Shown here piece by piece: positions 1-20,426 of a DNA stretch of 64,000 nt (the first letter of the stretch is position 1; each line of letters starts with the position of its first letter). The stretch lies in NCBI GenBank assembly GCA_964291295.2, contig OZ219754.1, positions 2,464,001 through 2,528,000 on the forward strand, given 5' to 3'. The DNA comes from an uncultured Candidatus Binatia bacterium (GTDB lineage Bacteria; Desulfobacterota; Binatia; UBA9968; JAJDTQ01). The position numbers and the translations under genes were made by a program. The notes beneath the pieces were generated by a model. The model was not told the DNA's origin. It did no database searches and saw only the letters and a program-made list of their open reading frames with translations.

Positions 1-56
1 AGCTCATCGGTCATCAGTTCATCAAGCATCTGAGGGATGTGGGGAGACTGTCCTGA
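1..56 (+). CDS. 3' end of upstream gene, probably a DNA (cytosine-5)-methyltransferase (partial)
   Basis: Frame from base 3 reads LIGHQFIKHLRDVGRLS*. TGA at 54-56 overlaps the next ATG (TGATG). The peptide resembles the helix after motif X (GNAVP) of C5-MTases, and MTases are typical neighbours of the downstream gene. Only 17 codons are visible. Confidence 0.4.
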   Translation, partial: LIGHQFIKHLRDVGRLS

Positions 57-3013
57 TGGCTACGTTCAAGACGCGTGCTCGCACACTGGACATGCTCGGT
101 CGGCAACAGATTGCCGGCATTCCGACTGCGATCAGCGAGCTGTTCAAGAACGCGCACGATGCCTATGCTGATCATGTCGAGATCGACTATTACCGCTCGG
201 ATGGCCTGTTCGTCTTGCGAGACGACGGAATCGGTATGAGTCGTGACGATTTCGTGACGCGGTGGCTTACAATCGGAACGGAAAGCAAGTTCGACCCGAA
301 TCGACCCCCACCGCAAGATCCAGACAAGAAACCGCGCCCGATGCTGGGGGAGAAGGGAATCGGAAGGCTTGCGATTGCGACCATTGGCCCGCAGCTTCTG
401 GTTCTCACTCGCCCGAAGGCTGACAACGGAGCCTCCGACCTGACGACAGCGTTCCTGAACTGGGGCATATTCGAATGGCCCGGCATAGACTTGGAGGACA
501 TTGAGATACCTCTACGGTCGTTTGCATCAGGTTCTCTGCCTTCGGCAAGAGACGTGGCGGACATGGTACAAGAATTTGGTAGGAGCGCCAAAAATATCGG
601 GCAGGATGTCGAGCATAACTTGTTGGAGAGGCTTGCAATGGAATTGGATCTCTTCGATATCGACCCGCGAGACATCGACTCCTATCTTGAAAAGCCATCA
701 CTCGGCGCGAACGGCAACGGCACGCATTTCATCATCAAGCCCGCCTGGCCGTTACTGGTTGACGACATCGACGGAGATCCTGCATCTAGCAAGGTAGCCG
801 TGCTGAAAAAGGCAACACCCTTGAAAAAGGCATTGCTGGGATTCAGCAACACCATGATGACACCCGACTCGCGATCCCTAATTCATACCTCATTTCGCGA
901 TCATAAGTCGGTCGACCTCGTCGAAGACCTGATTGCAGAGGGTGAATTCTTCACCGCAAATGAGCTTCAAAACGCAGACCACCGGATGAGCGGTACCTTT
1001 GACGCGTTCGGGCAATTCCGCGGCGAAATCTCGATCTACGGCGAAACAACCACCGATCATGTGATTCCTTGGAGAGGGGCGCGCGGTGTACCCACGCTCT
1101 GTGGTCCGTTCTCCATCGACTTCGCTGCTTTCGAAGGCGACAGCAGACACTCGACAATTCCATATGAGGAGCATGGGAGATTGACAAGCAAAACCGAACA
1201 ATTGGGTGGATTGTACATCTATAGAAACGGCATCCGGGTTCTTCCTTACGGCGACACAGATTACGATTGGCTGGACATAGAGTTTAGGCGAACAAAAAGC
1301 GCTTACTATTATTATTTTTCTCATCGAAAAATGTTCGGAGCAGTGAATCTCGATTCGGAAAGAAATTGGCAACTACAGGAAAAGGCTGGTCGAGAGGGGT
1401 TTCAGGAAAATAGAGCGTATCGTCAATTCAAATCGATTCTTCAAAATTTTTTTTTACAGATGGCGGCAGATTTTTTCCGTACAGAAGGGGCACATTCGGA
1501 GGTATTCGAGCTACGAAAGGCACAACTGTCCAAGGAGGATTATGCAAGAAAACAACGAGAAAAACAAGTTCTGGAGAGAAGAAGACAGTTTCTAGCTGAG
1601 TTGAATTCCTTTTTCGACAAACTCAAGAATGATGATCCGCAAGAAGAGATTTTGGCGTTGACGGAACACGTCGCGGCAGAATTGCAGAAGGTAAGCAGCA
1701 TACCGGACGGTCAACTCGCCGCACACAAAATCTTGGAGCTTGAGCGTCGGGCACAGATGGAGGTCAGAAACTTGGAAGCCCGCTACCGTATTTCACGACC
1801 TCGGATCGGACTGGCCAGGGCTGCAATTCGGGACTGGGAAGTGTACGTCGCAGAGTTTGCTGCGCTCCAAGACAATGTATTCAAGCCGGCACGTACCATG
1901 ATCGATGAGCTGGTCGGTGAAGAAGCAAGAAAGGCCGAATTGTCGCTTGATAGGCGTATCAGGACAGAGGCGGCATTGGACGATCTTGGGGAGGAGGCGC
2001 GGAAGATTACGGGTAAATCGGGGCAAGAAGTACGAGTGGAAGCGAACAAGGTCGCGTCAGAAGCGCGCGAGTTGGCGGGCCGATCTCTGAAGACCGTGGA
2101 ATCGGAACTACGGGAGGTGCTCAGCGAGTTCCAGCGAATGAACCTTACCGAGATGCCTGATGAGCTTTTTGTCGAAACAAGAAGCGCACTGGAGACCAGG
2201 GTATTGAGCGTAACAGAAAAACAAGGAGCATTGTTGCGTTCGGTTCTGGAGCAGCTTCAAGCTGTAGACGTGACGGGAGAAACCTCGACAACTGAGCAGT
2301 TGATGGCCATTGAGCAGCGGAACCTGTTGTTGGAGGAGGAGGCCGAGGCTGACGCGCAGCTGGCGCAGTTAGGAATGGCGATAGAAATCATAAACCACGA
2401 GTTTTCGGGAACAGTGCGGTCGATTCGGAACGGCTTGCGCAGATTGAAGGCTTGGGCTGATGTCAATGAAGAGTTGGGAGAGTTGCACGACAGTATTAGA
2501 ACCAGTTTTGATCACCTTGACGGATATCTGACGCTGTTCACGCCGTTGCAGCGGCGACTCTACAGGAAGCCCGTGGAGATCCGCGGTTCCGAGATTCGGA
2601 CTTTTTTGGAGGAACTGTTCCGTGCGCGTTTGGCACGCCATGCCGTGTCCTTCAAGGCGACAAGAGCCTTTAGAGATGCTAGAATCACTAGCTTTCCATC
2701 GAGCTTCTATCCTGTATTTGTGAATTTGGTGGACAACGCAATTTTTTGGCTGTCGCAACAGAACCCCCAAGAGGAACGAGCCATTGAGCTTGATGAGCGC
2801 GGCGGTGTGTTGCTTGTCTCTGATAACGGACCAGGAGTCGATGTGCGCGACCGGGAGGCGATTTTCGAGTTCGGCTTCAGCAGAAAGCCTGGCGGTCGAG
2901 GGATGGGTTTGCACATTGGGCGGGAAGCTCTACGCCGGGTCGGCTTCGATCTTCAGTTGCTCGAAGGCGACGGTGGCGCAACATTCGGCGTGGTCCCGGT
3001 GACAGAGCTATAG
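56..3013 (+). CDS. GHKL (paraMORC/HSP90-like) ATPase fused to HEF-type histidine kinase
   Basis: N-terminal GHKL motifs ELFKNAHDAYA, DDGIGM, GEKGIGRLA; long coiled coil; H-box IINHEF; C-terminal HATPase motifs NLVDNA, DNGPG, FxxGFS, GRGMGL. Confidence 0.9.
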   Translation: MATFKTRARTLDMLGRQQIAGIPTAISELFKNAHDAYADHVEIDYYRSDGLFVLRDDGIGMSRDDFVTRWLTIGTESKFDPNRPPPQDPDKKPRPMLGEKGIGRLAIATIGPQLLVLTRPKADNGASDLTTAFLNWGIFEWPGIDLEDIEIPLRSFASGSLPSARDVADMVQEFGRSAKNIGQDVEHNLLERLAMELDLFDIDPRDIDSYLEKPSLGANGNGTHFIIKPAWPLLVDDIDGDPASSKVAVLKKATPLKKALLGFSNTMMTPDSRSLIHTSFRDHKSVDLVEDLIAEGEFFTANELQNADHRMSGTFDAFGQFRGEISIYGETTTDHVIPWRGARGVPTLCGPFSIDFAAFEGDSRHSTIPYEEHGRLTSKTEQLGGLYIYRNGIRVLPYGDTDYDWLDIEFRRTKSAYYYYFSHRKMFGAVNLDSERNWQLQEKAGREGFQENRAYRQFKSILQNFFLQMAADFFRTEGAHSEVFELRKAQLSKEDYARKQREKQVLERRRQFLAELNSFFDKLKNDDPQEEILALTEHVAAELQKVSSIPDGQLAAHKILELERRAQMEVRNLEARYRISRPRIGLARAAIRDWEVYVAEFAALQDNVFKPARTMIDELVGEEARKAELSLDRRIRTEAALDDLGEEARKITGKSGQEVRVEANKVASEARELAGRSLKTVESELREVLSEFQRMNLTEMPDELFVETRSALETRVLSVTEKQGALLRSVLEQLQAVDVTGETSTTEQLMAIEQRNLLLEEEAEADAQLAQLGMAIEIINHEFSGTVRSIRNGLRRLKAWADVNEELGELHDSIRTSFDHLDGYLTLFTPLQRRLYRKPVEIRGSEIRTFLEELFRARLARHAVSFKATRAFRDARITSFPSSFYPVFVNLVDNAIFWLSQQNPQEERAIELDERGGVLLVSDNGPGVDVRDREAIFEFGFSRKPGGRGMGLHIGREALRRVGFDLQLLEGDGGATFGVVPVTEL

Positions 3014-3022
3014 GGGAGGGCG

Positions 3023-4582
3023 ATGGCGGACGAATCGATATCTGGCAACGACGACTTGGCGCGGCGTTTCCTTCAAACAGCGGTAGTGGTTGACGACGAG
3101 GCGCATATGCCATTCGCCGGAGATAGTCAGCCAGAGGCAGGACTGGTGGTACCGGGCCGGCGCACACGGACATTGAGCCGGGATAGCCGGGGCACAGCAG
3201 GTCGCGACTCGATTCATACCTTGGATGCAGCTTCGATCATGGATGCCTTTTCAGGCCTTGGTGTCATCTGCGGAGTGGTCGGTCCCACGGATTCAGCGAT
3301 GAAAACGATGAGAAAGGCCGACATCGTGATCCTCGACTGGCTTCTGAAGGACGGCGAGTCCCGGTATACGCTGAAGTTGATTCGGGAACTGCTGGCAGGG
3401 GAAGAAGCGGACAGGAACTCACTTCGAATCGTGGCTATATATACCGGAGAGGCCAGGTTGGAAGAAATTTCCACGGCCGTCTTCGAGGAATTGCAGCAAG
3501 CCGGACTCGATCCCGATTGGGTGGGGGAAACAAAGGTAAAAATCTCATACCGACATGGTTGCGTTGTTCTCTACGCCAAATCCAACGTAAATCTGGTGGA
3601 GCATTTGAAGAGCAGGAGTGTTGCTGAGGAAATCCTGCCGGAGAGGTTGGTAGAGGATTTTGCGTTGATGACTCGCGGTTTACTTCCTGGTATTGCGCTA
3701 ACCTCGCTGACGGCGGTTAGAGAGGGGGCGCATCAGGTCTTGGACCAATTCAGCGCTGAATTGGATCCCGCGTTTCTTGCTCACAGAGCATGTCTTTCCA
3801 GTCCAGAAAATGCAGAACAACAGATCGTAAATCATGTTGCTGAAGAGCTTCGCGGTCTGATGGACAACGCTGTTTCAGGAGTATCTCCCGCAAGCGCGAA
3901 AGCTGTCGAGAGTTGGATACGGCGCAACGGAACGGTGAACTTTGTGTTCGGCGACCGGCGTCTCGATCTGGAACAGACCATCGTGTTGGCGAACAAGGGG
4001 TTGATGGAAAGCGAGCTAAGACATAACGCATTTGAAGGACTCTCTGCCGGCTTCGCGGGCCATGATGCTGGCGGTCTTGATGAGCGGCTGGCTTGGATCA
4101 TGAGTTCCCGAACGGTATACAGAGCGCCACCGCCGATTTTGTGGTTGGGTGCCTTCATCACGATGTCCAAGTCTGATGGCGAACAGCATTTGATCTGTAT
4201 GAGGCCTCGATGTGATTGCGTAAGGTTGAATAAAGAAACTACGTTCTTTTTTCTGCCATTGGCTACCCCAAAGGAAGGAATGGAGCAAATCATCTTAAAC
4301 GTCAATGATACATTTGAGCGACTGGGCATCGAAAGTGATCCAAGCGGCTGGGTTCTTCGACAATTCAAACCATTTGAGGGTAATGGCGTCGTAACCGCAA
4401 CAAAGCGGGAATCAGATGGTGGCTTCGAGTTTGCGGATACCAATGACAATCGGTACAAGTGGCGAGGAGAACTCAAGGCCGAGTATGCTCAAAGGATCGC
4501 CCAGAAATTTGGAACGACTCTGAGTCGCGTTGCGATTGATGAGTCGGAATGGCTTAGGAGGATGGCCAGAAAAGGACGCTGA
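3023..4582 (+). CDS. Atypical response-regulator receiver-domain protein (Response_reg_2-like)
   Basis: VVVDDE acidic pair, IVILDW phosphoacceptor strand, IYTG. SD GGGGAGG upstream. Starts 9 nt after the kinase gene. The C-terminal region with RPRCDCVR is unassigned. Confidence 0.8.
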   Translation: MADESISGNDDLARRFLQTAVVVDDEAHMPFAGDSQPEAGLVVPGRRTRTLSRDSRGTAGRDSIHTLDAASIMDAFSGLGVICGVVGPTDSAMKTMRKADIVILDWLLKDGESRYTLKLIRELLAGEEADRNSLRIVAIYTGEARLEEISTAVFEELQQAGLDPDWVGETKVKISYRHGCVVLYAKSNVNLVEHLKSRSVAEEILPERLVEDFALMTRGLLPGIALTSLTAVREGAHQVLDQFSAELDPAFLAHRACLSSPENAEQQIVNHVAEELRGLMDNAVSGVSPASAKAVESWIRRNGTVNFVFGDRRLDLEQTIVLANKGLMESELRHNAFEGLSAGFAGHDAGGLDERLAWIMSSRTVYRAPPPILWLGAFITMSKSDGEQHLICMRPRCDCVRLNKETTFFFLPLATPKEGMEQIILNVNDTFERLGIESDPSGWVLRQFKPFEGNGVVTATKRESDGGFEFADTNDNRYKWRGELKAEYAQRIAQKFGTTLSRVAIDESEWLRRMARKGR

Positions 4583-6013
4583 CTATTCCAGCCTACGGCA
4601 GCGCGAAATTTGGGACAACTGATAAGGATGTGCCTGTCCGGTTACAACGAGTCCAAGCTCGGGTGCGTAGGCGGCACCCCCGCATGGCTTTCCGGCTTCG
4701 CGCCATCCGACGCCGACGGCAGGGGATCTACAGATCTGACCTCGAGGGAGGATCGCCCTTTCTCCGGCGACACCGGGCCTTGATGACACGAGCATGTCGC
4801 CCCATGCATCGCCGTGCTCCGCCTCGTCCGGCAGCGGCTGCGCCTCCGCCCTGTATCCCATGGCTCGCGCGATGACGGCCGCGGCCTGCGCGGCGGCGTC
4901 ACGCAGCGCGCCGTCGTCGAGATGGGCGTAGATCGCGGTGGTCTCCCGCTTGCGGTGTCCGAGCAGCCATCCGACCGTGGTGAGCCCGACGCCGTTCATG
5001 ACGCCCTGGGAGGCCCAGGTGTGGCGGCAGTCGTGGATGCGAAGGCCGGGAAGCCTCGCCTCGTCGCGGATACCGCACCAGAAGGTGTAGAGCCGGGACG
5101 ATGTGAGGGTCTCGGGGAACACCCGCTCCCGGCCATCCGGCCGCGGCGGTTCCACGATCAGCCGTGCCGCTTCCGGCCCCAGGCAGGTGGTGCGCGGCCC
5201 GGTTTTGGAGCCTTCGATGCGCGCGCTCGCGCCGTCTCCGGTCAGCTCTCCGATCTCGTCCCACCTGATGTTGATGACTTCGGAGAGCCGCGCCCCGGTG
5301 AGCGTCAGCAGCCGGATGGCCGCCACCGGCCAGGGGTGTTCCTCCCGGTGGCGGTCGAGCACCGCGCCGAGACGCTCCAGCTCTTCGCGGTCGAGATAAC
5401 GCGCGACGGGCTTGCGGGGGTTCTTCACGATGTTGGCGCAGGCATCGGGGACATGCTCGCCGAGGTCGCCCCACTGGCGGGCCGTCCCGAGCATGGCGCG
5501 GAGTATCTCGAAGGCGCGGTTGGCGGCGCCGGGCCTGTCCGCGCTGGCGGCGTCGAACCTCGCCGAGACCCGCGCAGGGTCGATGGCGTCGAGCCGGAGC
5601 CTGCCGAAATGCGGCATCAGGCGGTTCTTCAGGTAGATGTCGAAGGTCACGAGCGAGGACGGTTTCCAGCGGTGTTTCCGCCGCGAGCGGTAACGGGCGG
5701 CGAAGTTCCGGAACAGCGGCGCCTTCTCCTTGCGCGGCGGCGTCACGTCCTCGCCGCCCCACAGGCGGGCGAGCACGGCCGCGCCTTCCCGGCGGGCCGC
5801 GTCGAGAGGCAGTTCGGGGAAGCGCCCGAGGGTGATCTTGCGCATGCGTCCTTTCACGCGGGTCTGGACGATCCAGGACCTGACGCCGGAGGGCTGCACC
5901 CTGACCCCGAAATGCGCCAGCAGACTGTCCCACAGGGTGTATTCCCGTTCCGCCGGCTTCGCGGCGGCGACGGCCTTCACGGTGAGCCGGATACGATGCC
6001 TGCCGCCGCTCAT
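4583..6013 (-). CDS. Tyrosine recombinase/integrase 2 with N-terminal arm-binding domain
   Basis: Starts MSGGRHRIRLTVKAV..YTLWDS..FGVRVQPSG (arm-binding type). Catalytic TGAR, SKTG, HDCRH, LGH, TAIYAH. ATG at 6013 overlaps the stop of integrase 1 (ATGA), with SD GGAGGG upstream. Confidence 0.9.
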   Translation of the reverse strand: MSGGRHRIRLTVKAVAAAKPAEREYTLWDSLLAHFGVRVQPSGVRSWIVQTRVKGRMRKITLGRFPELPLDAARREGAAVLARLWGGEDVTPPRKEKAPLFRNFAARYRSRRKHRWKPSSLVTFDIYLKNRLMPHFGRLRLDAIDPARVSARFDAASADRPGAANRAFEILRAMLGTARQWGDLGEHVPDACANIVKNPRKPVARYLDREELERLGAVLDRHREEHPWPVAAIRLLTLTGARLSEVINIRWDEIGELTGDGASARIEGSKTGPRTTCLGPEAARLIVEPPRPDGRERVFPETLTSSRLYTFWCGIRDEARLPGLRIHDCRHTWASQGVMNGVGLTTVGWLLGHRKRETTAIYAHLDDGALRDAAAQAAAVIARAMGYRAEAQPLPDEAEHGDAWGDMLVSSRPGVAGERAILPRGQICRSPAVGVGWREAGKPCGGAAYAPELGLVVTGQAHPYQLSQISRCRRLE

Positions 6014-7152
6014 CGTGTGCCCTCCTTCCCGCTTCCGGTCATGGCGCCGTGTACGATGCCGGAGATGCGCCCGGCCGCCTCGCGGACATGCTCGTCGGCG
6101 AGATGGGCGTAGCGTTCGGTGGAGGCGACATCGGCATGGCCGAGCAGGCGGCCGACGGTGTAGAGGTCGAGACCGCTCATCACGGCATGGGAGGCGAAGG
6201 TATGCCGGCAGTCGTGGATGCGCACGTCGTCCAGCCCGGCGAGATTGCGCAGCTTCTGCCAGCGCAGCCCGAGGTCGGTCATCGGGCCGTCGCCCTTCCT
6301 GTTCGGGAAGACGAAGCGTCCTTCGCGCGGCAGGGTGTTGAGCACCGCCCGCGCGGGCGGGGGAAGCTGGACCGCCTTCGGCCCGGTCTTGGAGTCGGGC
6401 AACACCGCGGGTGTGTCCCGTATCCAGTCCCATTGCAGGCCGGCGATCTCGGACGACCGGGCGCCGGTGAACAGCAGCAGGCGGACGGCGGCGGCGGCCT
6501 GCCGGTCCTCCGCATGGCCGAGCACGAAACCGAGGCGCTTGAGTTCCTCCAGGGAGAGGAACCGCTCGCGCGGCGCCGTCCTGTAGCGCCGCATGTTGCG
6601 GCAGGGGTTGGAGCCCTGCGGGCGAAGGTTCCAGAGTTCCGCCTGCCGCATCATCACCGACAGCACCGGCAGGGTCCGGTTGGCGCTTCCGGGGGCGCCG
6701 CCGAGGGAATCGAACCAGCGCCGCACATCGGCGCGGTCGATCCCGGCGCCGGGCATCGCGCCGAAGAAGGGCACGAGGCGGTGCTTGATCAGGTGGGCGT
6801 TGCCCTTCCTCGTGGAGTGCTTCCAGCGCCGCCCTTGACGGCGCATGAAGTCGGCCGCGAAGTCGGCGAACAGCGGCCCGGTCTCGCGGTCGGCTTTGGC
6901 TTCGGCGATGGCGGCAAGGGCCTTCTCCCTCGCCTCGGCGGCGGTCATCTCGTCGGTCGTGCCGAGGACGATCTTCGGGGCGCCGATGGGGCGTGAGGCC
7001 CGGACGAAGAAGGTCTTGGTCCCGTTCCCGACGACGGTGAAGCCGAAGGCGGGCAGGTTCCTGTCGATGACGGTCAGACCGTATCGTCCGGGTTTCTTCT
7101 CCCTGAAGGTGCGGCGGGCCGTCCGCTCGTTGACGGGGGCATGGATGCGCAT
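6010..7152 (-). CDS. Tyrosine recombinase/integrase 1
   Basis: TGARSSEI, DSKTG, RIHDCRH, LLGH, TERYAH. Start placed at ATG 7152 (MRIHAPV) behind GGAGA. Confidence 0.9.
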   Translation of the reverse strand: MRIHAPVNERTARRTFREKKPGRYGLTVIDRNLPAFGFTVVGNGTKTFFVRASRPIGAPKIVLGTTDEMTAAEAREKALAAIAEAKADRETGPLFADFAADFMRRQGRRWKHSTRKGNAHLIKHRLVPFFGAMPGAGIDRADVRRWFDSLGGAPGSANRTLPVLSVMMRQAELWNLRPQGSNPCRNMRRYRTAPRERFLSLEELKRLGFVLGHAEDRQAAAAVRLLLFTGARSSEIAGLQWDWIRDTPAVLPDSKTGPKAVQLPPPARAVLNTLPREGRFVFPNRKGDGPMTDLGLRWQKLRNLAGLDDVRIHDCRHTFASHAVMSGLDLYTVGRLLGHADVASTERYAHLADEHVREAAGRISGIVHGAMTGSGKEGTR

Positions 7153-7426
7153 GGGCGTGTCTCCGTTGTCTGTTCCCTCGGGCGCCGTCCGTCCCGGGGG
7201 AACGGAACGACGCTCTTGAACGGACAACGCGCCCCGCGTGGGGGACCGCGGCCAGAGGCCGGATCAGGCCCAACCGTCTGTCACGCAACGGAAAACTCCC
7301 CACCGATGCAGGCCGGCCTGGCCTCGCTCTTTGCATCAAGGATGCGTGGGGTGTGCTATGGTTCGCTATGGTTGCGGTCCGCGCACCCGGCCTTCACCGG
7401 CATCGCGCGTACCGGCTTGCCTTCCC

Positions 7427-8314
7427 ATGATCGACGCCACCACCGAAGCCATCCTCTACGCCCTTGCCGCCGGCGTCATCTGGGGCGTGGCCCCGGCCCT
7501 GCTCAGGAAGGGCATGGCCGAGTCCAGCGTGAGCATGGCCACGATGCTGGCCCAGTACGGATCCCTGGCGGCCTTGGTGGCGGCGACCATGTGGCGCGGG
7601 GAGTTCGTGGCGCTGGACTGGCCTCCGCTGCTCTCCTTCATGCTCACGGGTGTTGCCGCCTGCCTGGGGAAAGTCTTTCTCAATCGGGGCATCGCCAGCG
7701 TGGGGGCGTCGAGGTCGGTGACGGTGAAGAACTCCTCGCCGCTCATCACCGTGCTGCTCGGATGGGCGCTGCTGGGCGAGCGGGTGGGTTGGGAGATCAC
7801 CGCGGGGGTGGTGGTGATGGTGGCCGGCGTGCTGTTGCTGACGGTGAGCCCGCTGAAGGGGGGGAAGGCCCCGGACCGACCGGCCGGTCTCATCTATCCG
7901 TTCCTGTCGTCGCTGGCGTTCGGGATCAATCCGATATTCAAGAAGTGGGGACTGGTGGCTGCCGCCGTGCCCGCCCTGGGAACGCTGGTCAACCACATGA
8001 CCGCCACGGTGCTCCTGTTTACCGCCGGCCCGTCGCTGGGCATCCATCCGTGGCGGCGGGAGAGGGTACCGCTCAAGAGCGCGGCGCTCTTCGGCATCTC
8101 CGGCATTGCCGAGGCCATGGCGTCGCTGTGCACGTACAAGGCGTTGCTGCTGGCGTCCGCGGTCCTGGTGGCGCCCATCTGGCGCATCTCGCCGCTCATC
8201 ACCTTTGTCCTGTCCCGTTTCACCCTCCGTGCCCTGGAGAGCGTGACCCCGCGGGACGGTCTGGCCGCGGTTCTCATTGTCGCCGGCGTGTGGGTGCTCG
8301 CCCACGGCAGCTGA
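7427..8314 (+). CDS. EamA/DMT family transporter
   Basis: About 10 hydrophobic helices in two repeats; SPLITVLLGWALLGE motif. Confidence 0.85.
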   Translation: MIDATTEAILYALAAGVIWGVAPALLRKGMAESSVSMATMLAQYGSLAALVAATMWRGEFVALDWPPLLSFMLTGVAACLGKVFLNRGIASVGASRSVTVKNSSPLITVLLGWALLGERVGWEITAGVVVMVAGVLLLTVSPLKGGKAPDRPAGLIYPFLSSLAFGINPIFKKWGLVAAAVPALGTLVNHMTATVLLFTAGPSLGIHPWRRERVPLKSAALFGISGIAEAMASLCTYKALLLASAVLVAPIWRISPLITFVLSRFTLRALESVTPRDGLAAVLIVAGVWVLAHGS

Positions 8315-16907: not shown

Positions 16908-17996
16908 ATGGCATCGGTGCTTTTGTTGGGTCCGGAAGACATGAGCGGTCTCATCACCATGAAGGAGGCGGTGGATGCCATGGAGCGGGGGTATCTCGAC
17001 TGGGCCCGGAACCGTGAACTGGGGGCGTTGCGGCGCCGGGTGCATTCGGTGGCCAACGCCCGGGTGACGGTGCACCAGGGGGCGCCTGATTCCGCCGGGG
17101 TCACGGGGATTCTGACCCACTGCGAGCACGTGATGATCCACGACAACGGCATCCAGACCTACCAGACCCGGGGCCGTCCGGTGCGGGTGATGTTCGACGG
17201 CAACAACGCCGAGCTCAAGTGCATCACGGTGGGGGAACTGCGGGTCCGGGAGTTGCCCGAGGCCAACAACGTGGTGAACGTCCAGACCGCCTGCTCCACC
17301 GCGGTGGGCATCAAGCACTTGGCACGGCAGAGCTCCAGGGTGGTGGGGGTGCTGGGCTCCCGGGCCCAGGCGGAGTGCCAGTTGCTTGCGTGCAAGGCGG
17401 TGGTTCCCGGCCTTGAGGAGGCCAGGGTCTACAGCCCGAATCCGGAAAACCGTACCCGGTTCGCCGCCAGGATGACCGAACTGATGGACATGGAGGTGCG
17501 GCCGGTGGCCACCAGCCGCGAGGCGGTCCAGGATGTGGACGTGCTGTTGTCGGTGACCAACTCCAACGTGCCCACCTTCGACGGCGACTGGCTGGCACCC
17601 GGCGTGCATCTGTGCTCGATCGTCTCCAGCAACATCGGCCTGATGCGCGGCGGCTTCATCCAGCGAAAACGGCGGGAGGTGGACGACAGGACCCTCCAGC
17701 GTTGTGACATCATTGTCTGCAACTCGAAGCGGCAGGAGATCCTGGACGAGCCCGGGGTGCTGTGGGATCCGGTGCAGCAGGGCGTCATCACCTGGGACGA
17801 CGTGTGGGATCTGGGCGAACTGCTGGCCGGACAGGTACCGGGCCGGACTTCCGAAGAGCAGATCAGCTTCTACAAGAACAACGCCTTCTGGGGCGTGGGC
17901 GATCAGGCCATCGGCGAGTTGCTGTACGAGCGCGCGGTGGAGCGGGGGCTCGGCACCGAGCTTCCCATTGACGGCGCCGAGTACCGGGAAGCATAG
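16908..17996 (+). CDS. Ornithine cyclodeaminase/mu-crystallin family protein (second, divergent)
   Basis: IKHLAR, DVLLSVTNS, WLAPGVH, DLGELLAGQVPGRTSEEQISFYKN; SD AAGGAGG. Confidence 0.85.
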   Translation: MASVLLLGPEDMSGLITMKEAVDAMERGYLDWARNRELGALRRRVHSVANARVTVHQGAPDSAGVTGILTHCEHVMIHDNGIQTYQTRGRPVRVMFDGNNAELKCITVGELRVRELPEANNVVNVQTACSTAVGIKHLARQSSRVVGVLGSRAQAECQLLACKAVVPGLEEARVYSPNPENRTRFAARMTELMDMEVRPVATSREAVQDVDVLLSVTNSNVPTFDGDWLAPGVHLCSIVSSNIGLMRGGFIQRKRREVDDRTLQRCDIIVCNSKRQEILDEPGVLWDPVQQGVITWDDVWDLGELLAGQVPGRTSEEQISFYKNNAFWGVGDQAIGELLYERAVERGLGTELPIDGAEYREA

Positions 17997-18004
17997 GCGC
18001 TCCG

Positions 18005-18031
18005 GACCCCGCTCCCGCGGGGAGCGGGGTC
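18005..18031. terminator. Strong GC hairpin after OCD-like gene
   Basis: GACCCCGCTCCC / GGGAGCGGGGTC stem; no clear U-tract. Confidence 0.5.
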
Positions 18032-18069
18032 TGCGTGTTCGAGGATCTCGACGACGAACTCGACGAACG

Positions 18070-18166
18070 AACTTCGATACGCACGTCGTCCGGGCCGTGC
18101 ACGAAGGCGATCCTGAGGCCGGGCCGCAGCGGCCGGGGCTCGGAGAGAAACGCGGCGCCCCGCCGC
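18070..18166 (-). pseudogene. Fragment of a VOC/glyoxalase family gene
   Basis: RGAAFLSEPRPLRPGLRIAFVHGPDDVRIEV resembles the C-terminal strands of VOC proteins (F.xP.G.xIE); no N-terminal half is present. Confidence 0.5.
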
Positions 18167-18388
18167 CCGGGAATATCCGAACAAGGCGGCGGCGCGACAG
18201 GGAACTGCTCGCAAGCTGTTGGCTTCATTGATTCAGCCCAAGCCAGCTCGGGGTTGTTCGGACCTTCCCTTGAGGTCCGCCGCGGCGAGCCTTGAAGTCG
18301 CGGGTCGGGCTGTTAGATTTCTTGCAGGGCATGGTTTCGTCCTCGCCGACATTGGTCTGCCGCGAGGAGAAGGCCGGCAGGTGCCGCA

Positions 18389-18754
18389 GTGATGCTATCG
18401 ATCTGGGTGGGGATATTCGGCGTGCTGGCCGGTGCGCTGGTTGCGGCGCGGCTGGGGGATCGCTCCGGCGGGCCCGAGCGGTATTGGCTCACGGGGCTGG
18501 CGGCCGTGGCGCCGGCCTGGATCATCGCACTGACGGTGCTGCTGGGGGGGCTGTCGGGGGAGAACCCGGACAAGAGCATGAAGGCCCTGCTGGCGGCCTC
18601 CACCGCCAGCGGGCTCCTGGGTGTCATCGCCACGGAGTTTTGCGTGAGGTGGGTCAAGGCGCGGCCGGCGGCGGCGCCCGGCGCCCTGTACTGGTTCCTG
18701 GGCGTGGTTGCGTTGCTCCCCTCCTGGGGGTTCATGCTGTGGAGGTTGCCATGA
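18389..18754 (+). CDS. Hypothetical membrane protein (~4 TM)
   Basis: Hydrophobic ORF whose stop overlaps the next ATG (ATGA). Confidence 0.65.
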   Translation: MMLSIWVGIFGVLAGALVAARLGDRSGGPERYWLTGLAAVAPAWIIALTVLLGGLSGENPDKSMKALLAASTASGLLGVIATEFCVRWVKARPAAAPGALYWFLGVVALLPSWGFMLWRLP

Positions 18755-19737
18755 GGAAGCGGATCCGGGCCACTGGCGTGGCGCTGGGGGCGGTATCATG
18801 GCCGCTGCCTCTTTACGCGCACGGCGGCTCGGCGCACGAGCCGTTGCCGTTCGACGCGCTGATGCTGGTGTTCGGGATGGTTCCCTGGAATTTCCGGGTG
18901 GACATTCTCCTGGCGCTGGTGCTGGCCACGGGCATCTACCTCACCGGCTGGTGCCGACTCCGCCGGCAGGCCGACGGCGCCGCCGCCTGGTCCGGCGCGG
19001 CGCTCTACCTCGGCGGCATGGCCGCGCTCCTTGTCGCCCTGGTGTCGCCGGTGGACCGGCTCGCGGCCGAGCGCCTCAGCATGCACATGGTGCAGCACAT
19101 CCTGCTGTTGATGATCGCACCGTTGGGGATTCTGCTGGCCAACCCCTTCGCGGCCGCGCTCTGGGGGCTTCCGGCCGGGCTCCGGCACCGCTTCGCGGGA
19201 CTGTTCCGCGAGGGCGCCCGGTTGCGGTCGGTCCTGTCCATGCTCACCTTCATGCCGGTGGCCTGGGCCGTCTACGTGGTGAACCTCTGGGCCTGGCACC
19301 ACCCGACACTCTACCAGGCGGCGCTCCGTCACTGGTGGCTCCATGACCTCGAACACTGGCTGTTCTTCGGCACCGCGGTGCTCTTCTGGTGGCCCATCGT
19401 CAATGCGGCGCCGCTATTCCGCCCCACCCGGCCGCTGGGGGCGAGAATCGTGTATCTGGTGGCCGCGGCGCTCCAGAACACCTTGCTGGGCATGGCCATC
19501 TCCCTGCCCGAGCGAGTCCTGTATCCGTTCTACGCCGCCGTCCCGATGGTCGAGAAATTGAGCCCGATCCAGGATCAGGCCCTCGGCGGCGGTATCATGT
19601 GGGTCAGCGGGCACATGTACCTCTTCCCGCTCCTGGTGCTGGTGGCCCGCCGGCTGATTGCGGAGGACGCCGCGGCCGGGGCCGGCGGCCCTGAGCCGGG
19701 GCCGGGCCGTCCCGCACCCTGGCGGGCAGGCACATGA
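18751..19737 (+). CDS. ctaG: Cytochrome c oxidase assembly factor, Caa3-type CtaG
   Basis: SMHMVQHILLLMIAP, WAWHHP.LY, LHDLEH, LFWWP, DQALGGGIMW. Confidence 0.88.
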   Translation: MRKRIRATGVALGAVSWPLPLYAHGGSAHEPLPFDALMLVFGMVPWNFRVDILLALVLATGIYLTGWCRLRRQADGAAAWSGAALYLGGMAALLVALVSPVDRLAAERLSMHMVQHILLLMIAPLGILLANPFAAALWGLPAGLRHRFAGLFREGARLRSVLSMLTFMPVAWAVYVVNLWAWHHPTLYQAALRHWWLHDLEHWLFFGTAVLFWWPIVNAAPLFRPTRPLGARIVYLVAAALQNTLLGMAISLPERVLYPFYAAVPMVEKLSPIQDQALGGGIMWVSGHMYLFPLLVLVARRLIAEDAAAGAGGPEPGPGRPAPWRAGT

Positions 19738-20426
19738 AACACTGTCTGTTCGCCTCCCTGTTCATGGTCTTCTGCCTGCCCGCCGCGGCCTCGGGCGCGG
19801 CCGAAGACCACCGCCTCAGGGAACTCGGCTTCATCGTCCAGGAGGGCTTCCTGGAAGCCCCCGCGTTCACGACCCGGGATGCGGCCGGGAACCCCGTGGA
19901 CTCCACCTCCTTTCGCGGCAGGCTTGTGGTGCTGAACTTCTGGGCCACCTGGTGTCCGCCCTGCCGCCTGGAAATGCCGGCCATGGAACGTCTGTACCGT
20001 GAATTCCGCGGCAAGGGGCTGGAGGTGGTGGCGGTCAACTTCATGGAATCGGCGGAACGGGTACGCGCTTTCGCGGAAGAACAGAATCTGACCTACCCGA
20101 TGTTGCTGGATGGCCGGGCCGATATCGCGGAGCGTTACGGTGTGAGGCGCCTGCCCGTTACCATGCTGATCGGGCGCGAGGGCGAGCTCCTCGCCAGATC
20201 CGTCGGATACAAGGAGTGGTACAAGGACGACATGCGCGCACTCGTGGCCGCCCTGCTGGGAGAAGGGCAGGTGGCGCAGGCGGCCACGGGCCGCAACGGT
20301 GCACCGTCGTTGCCGGGGCCGGCGGTCCTCGCCGTTCTGGCGGCGGTGGCCGGGTTCGCGGTGTGGTGCATCAGACGGAGCCGCGCCCGCCGCACGGAGC
20401 CGCTCCGCGGAGACGGCGCGTGCTGA
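19734..20426 (+). CDS. TlpA/ResA-like thiol-disulfide oxidoreductase
   Basis: LNFWATWCPPCRLEMP; signal peptide and C-terminal TM. Confidence 0.9.
   Translation: MKHCLFASLFMVFCLPAAASGAAEDHRLRELGFIVQEGFLEAPAFTTRDAAGNPVDSTSFRGRLVVLNFWATWCPPCRLEMPAMERLYREFRGKGLEVVAVNFMESAERVRAFAEEQNLTYPMLLDGRADIAERYGVRRLPVTMLIGREGELLARSVGYKEWYKDDMRALVAALLGEGQVAQAATGRNGAPSLPGPAVLAVLAAVAGFAVWCIRRSRARRTEPLRGDGAC

Follow-up and report, generated by a model that had tools for sequence, protein, structure and literature searches.

Within a 64,000-nucleotide (nt) stretch of the genome of an uncultured Candidatus Binatia bacterium (contig OZ219754.1, positions 2,464,001 to 2,528,000; hereafter the window), two adjacent genes, intA and intB, code for tyrosine recombinases at one end of an integrative element. 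A first-pass annotation had read them as paralogous, catalytically complete integrases that share an ATGA stop/start overlap, carry an arm-type N-terminus and differ most in their arm domains, and each of these points holds for the window (Table 1). The TGA of intA shares positions 6010-6013 with the ATG of intB, Pfam assigns both products to Phage_integrase, and the two proteins are 37% identical over 345 amino acids (aa). Each contains the full R-K-HxxR-H-Y set, comprising R232, K255, H313, R316, H339 and Y348 in IntA and R242, K270, H327, R330, H353 and Y362 in IntB. The arm domain is recognized as Arm-DNA-bind_3 (DUF4102) with 49.2 bits in IntB, against a cut-off of 27, and with 25.1 bits (E 1.9e-5), slightly below that cut-off, in IntA. 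Identity between the proteins is 42% in the catalytic domain, 35% in the core-binding domain and 24% in the arm, the most diverged of the three.

The last 60–70 residues of IntB form a non-conserved tail that extends to the stop codon of the convergent neighbouring gene; tail lengths in the family lie between 0 and 160 aa. Residues 1–395 of IntB were modelled with AlphaFold at a mean predicted local distance difference test (pLDDT) score of 85.6, and the top structural match of the model is lambda integrase. A helix of the core-binding domain carries conserved residues specific to each subunit, NRTLPVLS in IntA and NRAFEILR in IntB, and the same two signatures are visible in pairs on Sphingomonadales plasmids. 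The G+C content is ~70% across the pair and 49–57% in the genes 3′ of it. Near the ribosome-binding site, the leader of intA (window 7153-7240) holds conserved inverted blocks, TTGTC/GACAA, GTTCCC/GGGAAC and CGCCGTT/AACGGCG-like, which form a possible regulatory RNA structure.

We scanned one genome per species for relatives of IntA and kept the best 79 of 112 loci, 63–92% identical to IntA, from records titled Alphaproteobacteria, Gammaproteobacteria, Binatia, Bryobacterales and Rhodothermales. These loci are related rather than independent, and about a dozen come from a single genome. A relative of intB follows intA in 73 of the 79; in the remaining six, intA is truncated or frameshifted. 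The ATGA junction of the window is frequent rather than universal: of 47 intact subfamily pairs, 28 overlap by 4 nt and 16 by 11 nt, two are separated by 3 nt and one junction is unresolved. Plasmids of cultured Aurantiacibacter, Polymorphobacter and Sphingorhabdus likewise carry pairs that overlap by 4 nt. Partner fidelity is complete, with each first gene joined to the same second-gene clade (47/47), and the distances among IntA proteins and among IntB proteins correlate (Mantel rho 0.92, as high in 0 of 999 permutations, 47 pairs), which is the co-evolution that the first-pass annotation had proposed to look for by phylogeny. The ratio of nonsynonymous to synonymous substitution rates is ~0.28 for intA and ~0.24 for intB, from a one-in-five sample of comparisons. 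On this sequence evidence, both genes are under purifying selection and the partners co-diverge. In a second copy in the window's genome, intA is broken and intB is 87% identical, and fragments occur as well; further decayed family members or ends lie at G000:C1:507737-513446, 872702-876458, 1778867-1784190 and 3173058-3178778.

Related integrases are abundant in these genomes, mostly single at distance, and elements accrete in tandem, as would suit a chance neighbourhood in which the pair is a recent duplicate or two single-integrase elements have landed together. The fixed order, overlap, partner fidelity, co-divergence, purifying selection and a clade made up of pairs effectively refute this explanation, and we regard it as extremely improbable.

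Taking every subfamily gathered, 100 of 101 first genes and at least 101 of 104 second genes retain all six catalytic residues, and the nucleophilic tyrosine is kept in 101/101 and 103/104, respectively, in a clade whose members are <45% identical. No third recombinase was found within the element with 380- and 395-aa integrase queries, no excisionase family matched among the element open reading frames (ORFs) scanned, and neither a tRNA nor an Rfam RNA lies in the 20 kb containing the entire element (the tRNAs of the window are at 20281 and 47843), so that the first-pass statement that none of the three adjoins the pair stands within the element. The full catalytic set in both proteins, the strong divergence of the arms and the lack of a recognizable excisionase would suit a division by direction: each protein would work as a homotetramer on the same core, one for integration and the other for excision (or for resolving tandem arrays), and the differing arms would stand in for an excisionase in setting direction. 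We consider this division unlikely, since the tight coupling, with 44 of 47 pairs overlapping, makes separate control hard, and the core-binding helices differ in a conserved manner although both proteins would have to read both half-sites.

The similarity between copies with unrelated flanks ends sharply 203 bp upstream of the intA start, at CACACCNNACGCA, and this core is present at 61 of 72 mapped left ends. The element comprises 19.5 kb between 13-bp direct repeats, with intA and intB at its left end, so the search for further copies and the alignment of their flanks proposed in the first-pass annotation did define its ends. By count alone the core is not rare enough for significance in the window's genome; a high-copy genome has 22 occurrences, compared with 2 of a reversed control, and the position of the core is fixed relative to intA. 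The outer neighbours are a pyc-like (HMGL/PYC_OADA) gene and eamA, and in 19 relatives the distance between these two genes is ≤1.5 kb in 13 and within ~230 bp in 5. The intergenic DNA of these relatives is too diverged for an empty site to be read letter by letter. Of seven other elements tested, six gave no empty site and one, L047, which belongs to another pair subfamily and has the same core, gave one in three relatives: exactly 13 nt, a near-match to the core, lie between the flanks. The 13-nt core is thus found once in the empty site and twice around the sister element, and it is there, rather than at the window copy, that the first-pass proposal to look for empty sites succeeded.

Terminal inverted repeats were considered and rejected for the window element, which, like most others, has direct repeats. 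Cores in inverted orientation, a few kb apart, were observed at L146:7801/14758, L149, L150:1574/7797, L157:6649/7797 and L168:5463/7800, and such pairs could allow inversion of the segment between them. A tRNA target was likewise rejected, with none at the window element or at L047, L109 and L205.

Table 1. Features of the element and its surroundings; positions are those of the window unless a contig coordinate is given.
Feature	Position	Strand	Basis or remark
intA, first tyrosine recombinase	6010..7152	-	380 aa; arm 1-90, core-binding ~91-190, catalytic ~191-375
intB, second tyrosine recombinase	4583..6013	-	476 aa; homology to family stops near residue 400-416
ATGA stop/start overlap of intA and intB	6010..6013	-	AAGGAGG just upstream
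Conserved leader, left end to intA start	7153..7322	-	copy comparison
GAGCGAG block at +27	7323..7329	-	candidate arm-type site, inferred
D palindrome, GCATC-CTT-GATGC	7333..7345	-	+11 to +23 of the core; co-varies within the family
attL core CACACCCCACGCA, left end of element	7343..7355	-	boundary in copies; core motif
attR core CACACCCCCCGCA, direct repeat	G000:C1:2451824-2451836, outside the window		one mismatch to attL core
Host flank, EamA transporter gene, outside the element	7427..8314	+	
Response-receiver-like cargo (Response_reg_2), convergent with intB	3023..4582	+	domain search
HATPase/HEF_HK cargo	56..3013	+	domain search
C5 methyltransferase cargo, 3′ end	1..56	+	
Further cargo, in order: Vsr, type I restriction-modification S/M/R, PIN gene	beyond the window start		
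Backbone after the PIN gene: 108-aa protein of unknown function, CxxC-repeat protein, ssb fragment, 75-aa protein of unknown function, YAcAr/SLOG gene, U palindrome, attR			

Comparison of the arms on the two sides of the core, termed D and U, reveals a common anatomy. The D palindrome, a 5-bp stem with a 3-nt centre, follows the first ten core bases, and its inner pairs co-vary: 112 of 126 cells are paired against 87 in permutations (0 of 5000 reach this value; 42 distinct sequences, relatedness uncontrolled). At right ends a U palindrome of 4-5 bp stands 9-10 nt before the core, and a U hairpin, with six different stems among the sequences, was seen in 37 of the 55 distinct arms that precede left ends (6% expected by chance). 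The two palindromes each lie about 16-17 nt from the left edge of the core, on opposite sides. Of 85 D arms, 51 have GAGCGAG at +26/+27. At right ends, 61 of 82 arms contain a conserved motif near -108, a level reached by 0 of 20000 random windows, the motif having been derived from the same arms. Among 33 near-identical D arms the NN positions of the core differ in 42% and 18%, against 0-6% at its other positions. Since they vary among near-identical arms of both sides, NN probably lies inside the exchanged stretch, where mismatches would be tolerated.

The core, usually with the palindrome, precedes pairs on three Sphingomonadales plasmids; it is absent from a Paracoccus plasmid locus in an unannotated record. 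Among 160 metagenome and viral loci we counted 5 pairs, 91 single integrases and 64 loci too near a sequence end. Three of the five pairs are preceded by the core, with new compensatory pairs in the palindrome; of the two without it, one consists of two unrelated integrases and the other, L307, is a member of the clade. The strict core motif occurs upstream of none of the 91 single integrases.

Host DNA 5′ of the left ends is not conserved. The site is asymmetric, and only one of its sides is conserved in host targets. Such a site would suit a reading in which a single subunit cleaves in vivo and its partner has a DNA-binding or architectural role, keeping its catalytic residues for folding or DNA binding. 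The retention of the nucleophile in nearly every first and second gene of so divergent a clade makes this very unlikely.

The hairpins and the unconserved host side of the target (attB) could also point to a strand-biased, copy-out route, as in strand-biased circularizing integrative elements (SE) and integron cassettes, by which mainly one strand would be exchanged, small hairpins on extruded or single-stranded DNA would guide the reaction, replication would complete it and no empty donor site would be left. Covariation of the D palindrome, extending to compensatory pairs in distant metagenome pairs, the frequency of the U hairpin and its placement equidistant with D from the left edge of the core, an SSB and a SLOG protein encoded in the backbone, and a genome that holds ten copies, with pairs 96.2-99.9% identical, all agree with such a route. 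We nevertheless find it distinctly unlikely: duplication of the 13-bp core matches ordinary integration, no conserved gene resembling Tfp, Srap or TnpC stands beside the pair, no 6-bp carried footprint is seen (the seven bases 5′ of the core differ only modestly, by 12% against 6%, in near-identical arms), and the covariation test is blind to relatedness. A carried 6-bp coupling sequence 5′ of the core, of the Tn916/SE type, was not supported: in most copies, U arms that are identical also agree in their last bases.

Next, we placed the pair among its single relatives. A search of representative proteins returned 1843 matches at E<=1e-30, without genomic context. An even draw covered 401 genomes of the class of an Alphaproteobacteria handle, of which 100 matched a profile of the IntA and IntB proteins; we examined 50 loci, the best match of each of the 30 top genomes plus 20 spread down the score range. 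The integrase is single at 46 of these (4 close to a contig end), paired at three and a split gene at one, and one of the single integrases adjoins a tRNA. By the first-pass annotation, a two-subunit enzyme would be refuted if homologues usually occurred singly. Those at least 58% identical are practically always paired, whereas at ~35-40% identity most are single (46 of 50 in the draw and 91 of the 96 testable metagenome and viral loci). This makes the pair a derived clade within an otherwise ordinary family of single integrases. In our trees the window-related pairs form one branch (22 rows; ultrafast bootstrap 100, SH-like approximate likelihood ratio test 99) that contains 0 of 73 single relatives, an earlier tree having placed a solo gene, L048, inside it. 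Separate clades of first and of second genes are not rejected by the approximately unbiased test (p-AU 0.30 and 0.37). A phage origin was rejected, the best phage matches being ~30% identical, at one place per record.

Nested among single integrases is a second paired group, common in the genus of the window, whose two partners are 50-57% identical to each other; the CACACC core is absent upstream of its members. These pairs were seen at L013, L014, L021, L025, L029, L035, L037, L039, L040, L059, L133 and other loci, at many places per genome. A single origin of all paired integrases is rejected (p-AU 0.0014, with groups named after earlier trees and no outgroup root). Pairing thus probably originated two or more times, judging from the trees.

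Sixteen single integrases of the window's genus, all in one clade, share a left boundary, AAGTACACCGACATAC, ~150-165 bp upstream of the integrase match (L017, L019, L023, L024, L026, L038, L043, L060 and L063 are among the loci concerned). At about nine loci the DNA preceding this boundary is a shared coding-like sequence, which we take to resemble the YAcAr backbone gene, and this suggests that these single-integrase elements target the backbone of other islands.

The genes after intB are variable cargo, and a conserved third gene beside the pair was not found. Taking one long ORF downstream of intB per locus, and with no control set, 22 of 60 matched PADLOC defence models at E<=1e-55, the types being restriction-modification types I, IIG and III, Dsr, SspC, Hma, DrmD, IetS, Cas7e and PDC. 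Together with the mapped ends, the restriction-modification genes bear out the earlier proposal that the pair defines a mobile element with defence cargo. Relaxase and conjugation genes were not seen among the element ORFs; genome-wide, of the two families searched, PF03389 gave no match and PF03432 a single match on another contig. In the window element a low-GC cluster of Vsr, C5 methyltransferase, HATPase/HEF_HK and Response_reg_2 genes (window 56-4582 and G000:C1:2462477-2464056) is likely a defence-associated system, and its HATPase/HEF_HK and Response_reg_2 genes have no PADLOC model match at 1e-10. The backbone encodes an arginine-rich CxxC-repeat protein and a 108-aa protein (G000:C1:2455234-2456079 and about 2456284-2456610; also L133:3376-4386 and L114:3280-3612), which are candidates for accessory or directionality factors. 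As excisionases they were rejected, with no Pfam family above cut-off and no excisionase PHROG; Atlas gave no usable match for the 108-aa protein and an unnamed cluster for the CxxC protein.

A right-end arm is joined to a left-end arm at 63 of 115 distinct sites, and thus the elements accumulate in tandem. The same tails are joined variously to integrase heads, to other pair subfamilies and to integrase-less modules. Modules of the last kind start with the same core and palindrome (L206, L208, L210, L212-L216 and L220) and are possible non-autonomous or mobilisable cassettes; in L206, L208, L210 and L215 the small ORF after the core presumably encodes a MobC/ribbon-helix-helix-like protein. 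A different arm-type recombinase, of 422 aa, ~30% identical and with HALRNCF replacing HxxRH, was observed at L440-L444 (about 17100-19700), L107, L114 and L115, where it stands behind an IS5-like element and heads five near-identical tails that share one right-end arm.

We compared the family with described element types, each as presented in the passages of the cited papers that deal with it. IntSXT/P4-type integrases, with a DUF4102 arm, serve genomic islands, integrative and conjugative elements and satellites (PMC8138268). The present family shares with them the Arm-DNA-bind_3, core-binding and catalytic architecture and the lambda-integrase fold, a likeness by domain, from trees without a P4/SXT reference, as well as an integrase beside attL, direct-repeat ends, defence cargo and tandem accretion. 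It differs in that two coupled integrases, not one, stand beside the terminal direct repeat, that the flanks are the pyc-like gene and eamA rather than a tRNA, guaA or prfC target, and that a dispersed 13-bp target is common to several integrase subfamilies, with no excisionase found. SE and GInts are of similar size, and they too lack mobilisation genes, use several selected targets and carry two tyrosine recombinases, both catalytically complete, at the left end (PMC10214605). In that account they need their own IntA, Tfp, IntB and Srap, one recombinase is large, the terminal repeats are inverted with a 6-bp footprint, and none were found in Alphaproteobacteria. Here, in contrast, the recombinases are same-sized arm-type paralogues whose genes abut with none between, no Tfp/GinC or Srap/GinD counterpart follows intB, the repeats are direct, and the hosts are Alphaproteobacteria and other groups.

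Two adjacent tyrosine recombinases, both required, are also known from Tn554 (PMC3414803). As described there, the Tn554 family (TnpA, TnpB, TnpC) has one abnormally long enzyme (>600 aa), usually a TnpC, and no target duplication, whereas the proteins of the present family are ~380-400 aa with DUF4102 arms (380 and 476 aa in the window), the core is duplicated, and no conserved third gene follows intB. Recombinase-in-trio (RIT) elements, treated in the same paper, resemble the pair in that their recombinase genes overlap (by 4-8 bp) and each contains the catalytic motifs, and differ in having three genes from distinct families (RitA, RitB and RitC) and terminal inverted repeats, against two genes and a 13-bp direct repeat here. 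An integrase in the 'middle' position occurred in 1 of 232 distinct integrases, owing to an adjacent fragment of another element. The mobilizable Prevotella transposons MTnPi1-3, and Tn1806 cited with them, have tandem integrase genes, short duplicated att sites and multiple copies, and their authors suggest that the two enzymes may both be needed (PMC4755523). According to the passages on them, these integrases have no significant mutual homology and a relaxase is carried, in contrast to the 37%-identical paralogues and lack of a relaxase here. Two-integrase elements are mentioned in PMC5587801 and in work on pipolins (bioRxiv 2024.05.22.595293), where the passages concerned do not present them as coupled paralogues. 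We found no description of this paired-integrase family in the full-text literature, which mostly leaves out subscription journals and whose supplements might list members. The element type had been called poorly described from the outset: RIT, Tn554, SE and XerCD are excluded as its identity, while two-recombinase elements as such are known from Tn554, SE and MTnPi1. The two-integrase islands are a real, conserved family and a new variant of tyrosine-recombinase integrative elements.

XerC and XerD are paralogous recombinases of similar divergence that act at one asymmetric site, dif, and they serve as our working model for IntA and IntB. Xer proteins have no arm domains, are encoded by unlinked housekeeping genes and resolve chromosome dimers; IntA and IntB differ from them in having an arm domain and in scoring 41-57 bits against the XerC and XerD equivalog models, far below cut-offs of ~330. 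The asymmetric site, equal-dose coupling, two retained nucleophiles and subunit-specific residues make a mixed enzyme the best reading, and we propose, with somewhat better than even confidence, that the pair acts as one XerC/XerD-like recombinase that would integrate and excise the island at CACACCNNACGCA. We infer that both proteins are required. Overlap-coupled translation would provide about equal amounts of IntA and IntB, and each subunit would occupy one half-site, on the T-rich U side or on the D side with ACGCA and the palindrome, which fits the subunit-specific residues of the core-binding helix. Strand exchange would then proceed across about CACACCNN, with NN mismatches tolerated. 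The diverged arms would each recognize a distinct distal site, GAGCG at +27 or CGCTCA at about -108, and this could set direction without an excisionase. Because every element end would itself be a good target, tandem stacks would build up, and elements would exchange their heads and tails at the core.

Several observations weigh against this proposal. Pairing and co-evolution are equally compatible with a division by direction or an accessory role. The nearest outside relatives are single-integrase loci, so the fold needs no partner; one sister subfamily includes a solo first gene that is near-complete (L048), and in the 450 bp upstream of the clade-I pair L307 there is no core. The letter-level empty site comes from the sister subfamily, not from the window copy, and neither a circle nor an empty-site junction appeared among the matches listed from the three runs of one study that contain the stretch (contigs, 90% and 99% likeness; no RNA run was listed as containing it), which is no evidence either way. 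For several of the ten near-identical copies mentioned above, the surrounding unit opens with an IS5-like element, and transposition of the insertion sequence may therefore account for part of the copy number. The window copy itself has 4 changes in A and 7 in B at columns conserved in 90% of the family, including W152R, D268G and L289P in B; they fall within the range of the family and several are radical. Its ssb and CxxC genes also look truncated. With such changes and truncated backbone genes, the window copy may be decaying and perhaps inactive.

A broader proposal builds on the mixed XerC/XerD-like recombinase, and we put it forward tentatively, as a possibility we rather doubt: that these islands are a distinct class of integrative element with an obligate two-subunit arm-type integrase. 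Its 13-bp core, with two hairpins that would be read by structure and vary in sequence, would be a universal docking site for at least five pair subfamilies (<45% identical) as well as for modules that lack an integrase; defence cassettes, integrase heads and backbones would be shuffled as modules among Alphaproteobacteria, Gammaproteobacteria, Binatia, Acidobacteria and Rhodothermales, and pairing would have emerged from single ancestors at least twice within this one family.

Arm-type integrases of the lambda, P4 and SXT kind are textbook homotetramers whose direction depends on an excisionase. With a natural clade of paired paralogues and an asymmetric site, one can test directly how a heteromeric recombinase evolves from a homomeric one, and the close counterparts on plasmids of cultured Sphingomonadales, NZ_CP015441.1 among them, make the pair amenable to testing. 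It also bears on why Tn554, SE, RIT and MTnPi1 carry more than one recombinase, a question left open in the passages of the papers cited above. A heteromeric integrase with a short, mismatch-tolerant target could serve genome engineering. The family is unusual in its shared palindrome-flanked core and in the repeated origin of pairing, and it carries many anti-phage systems across phyla.

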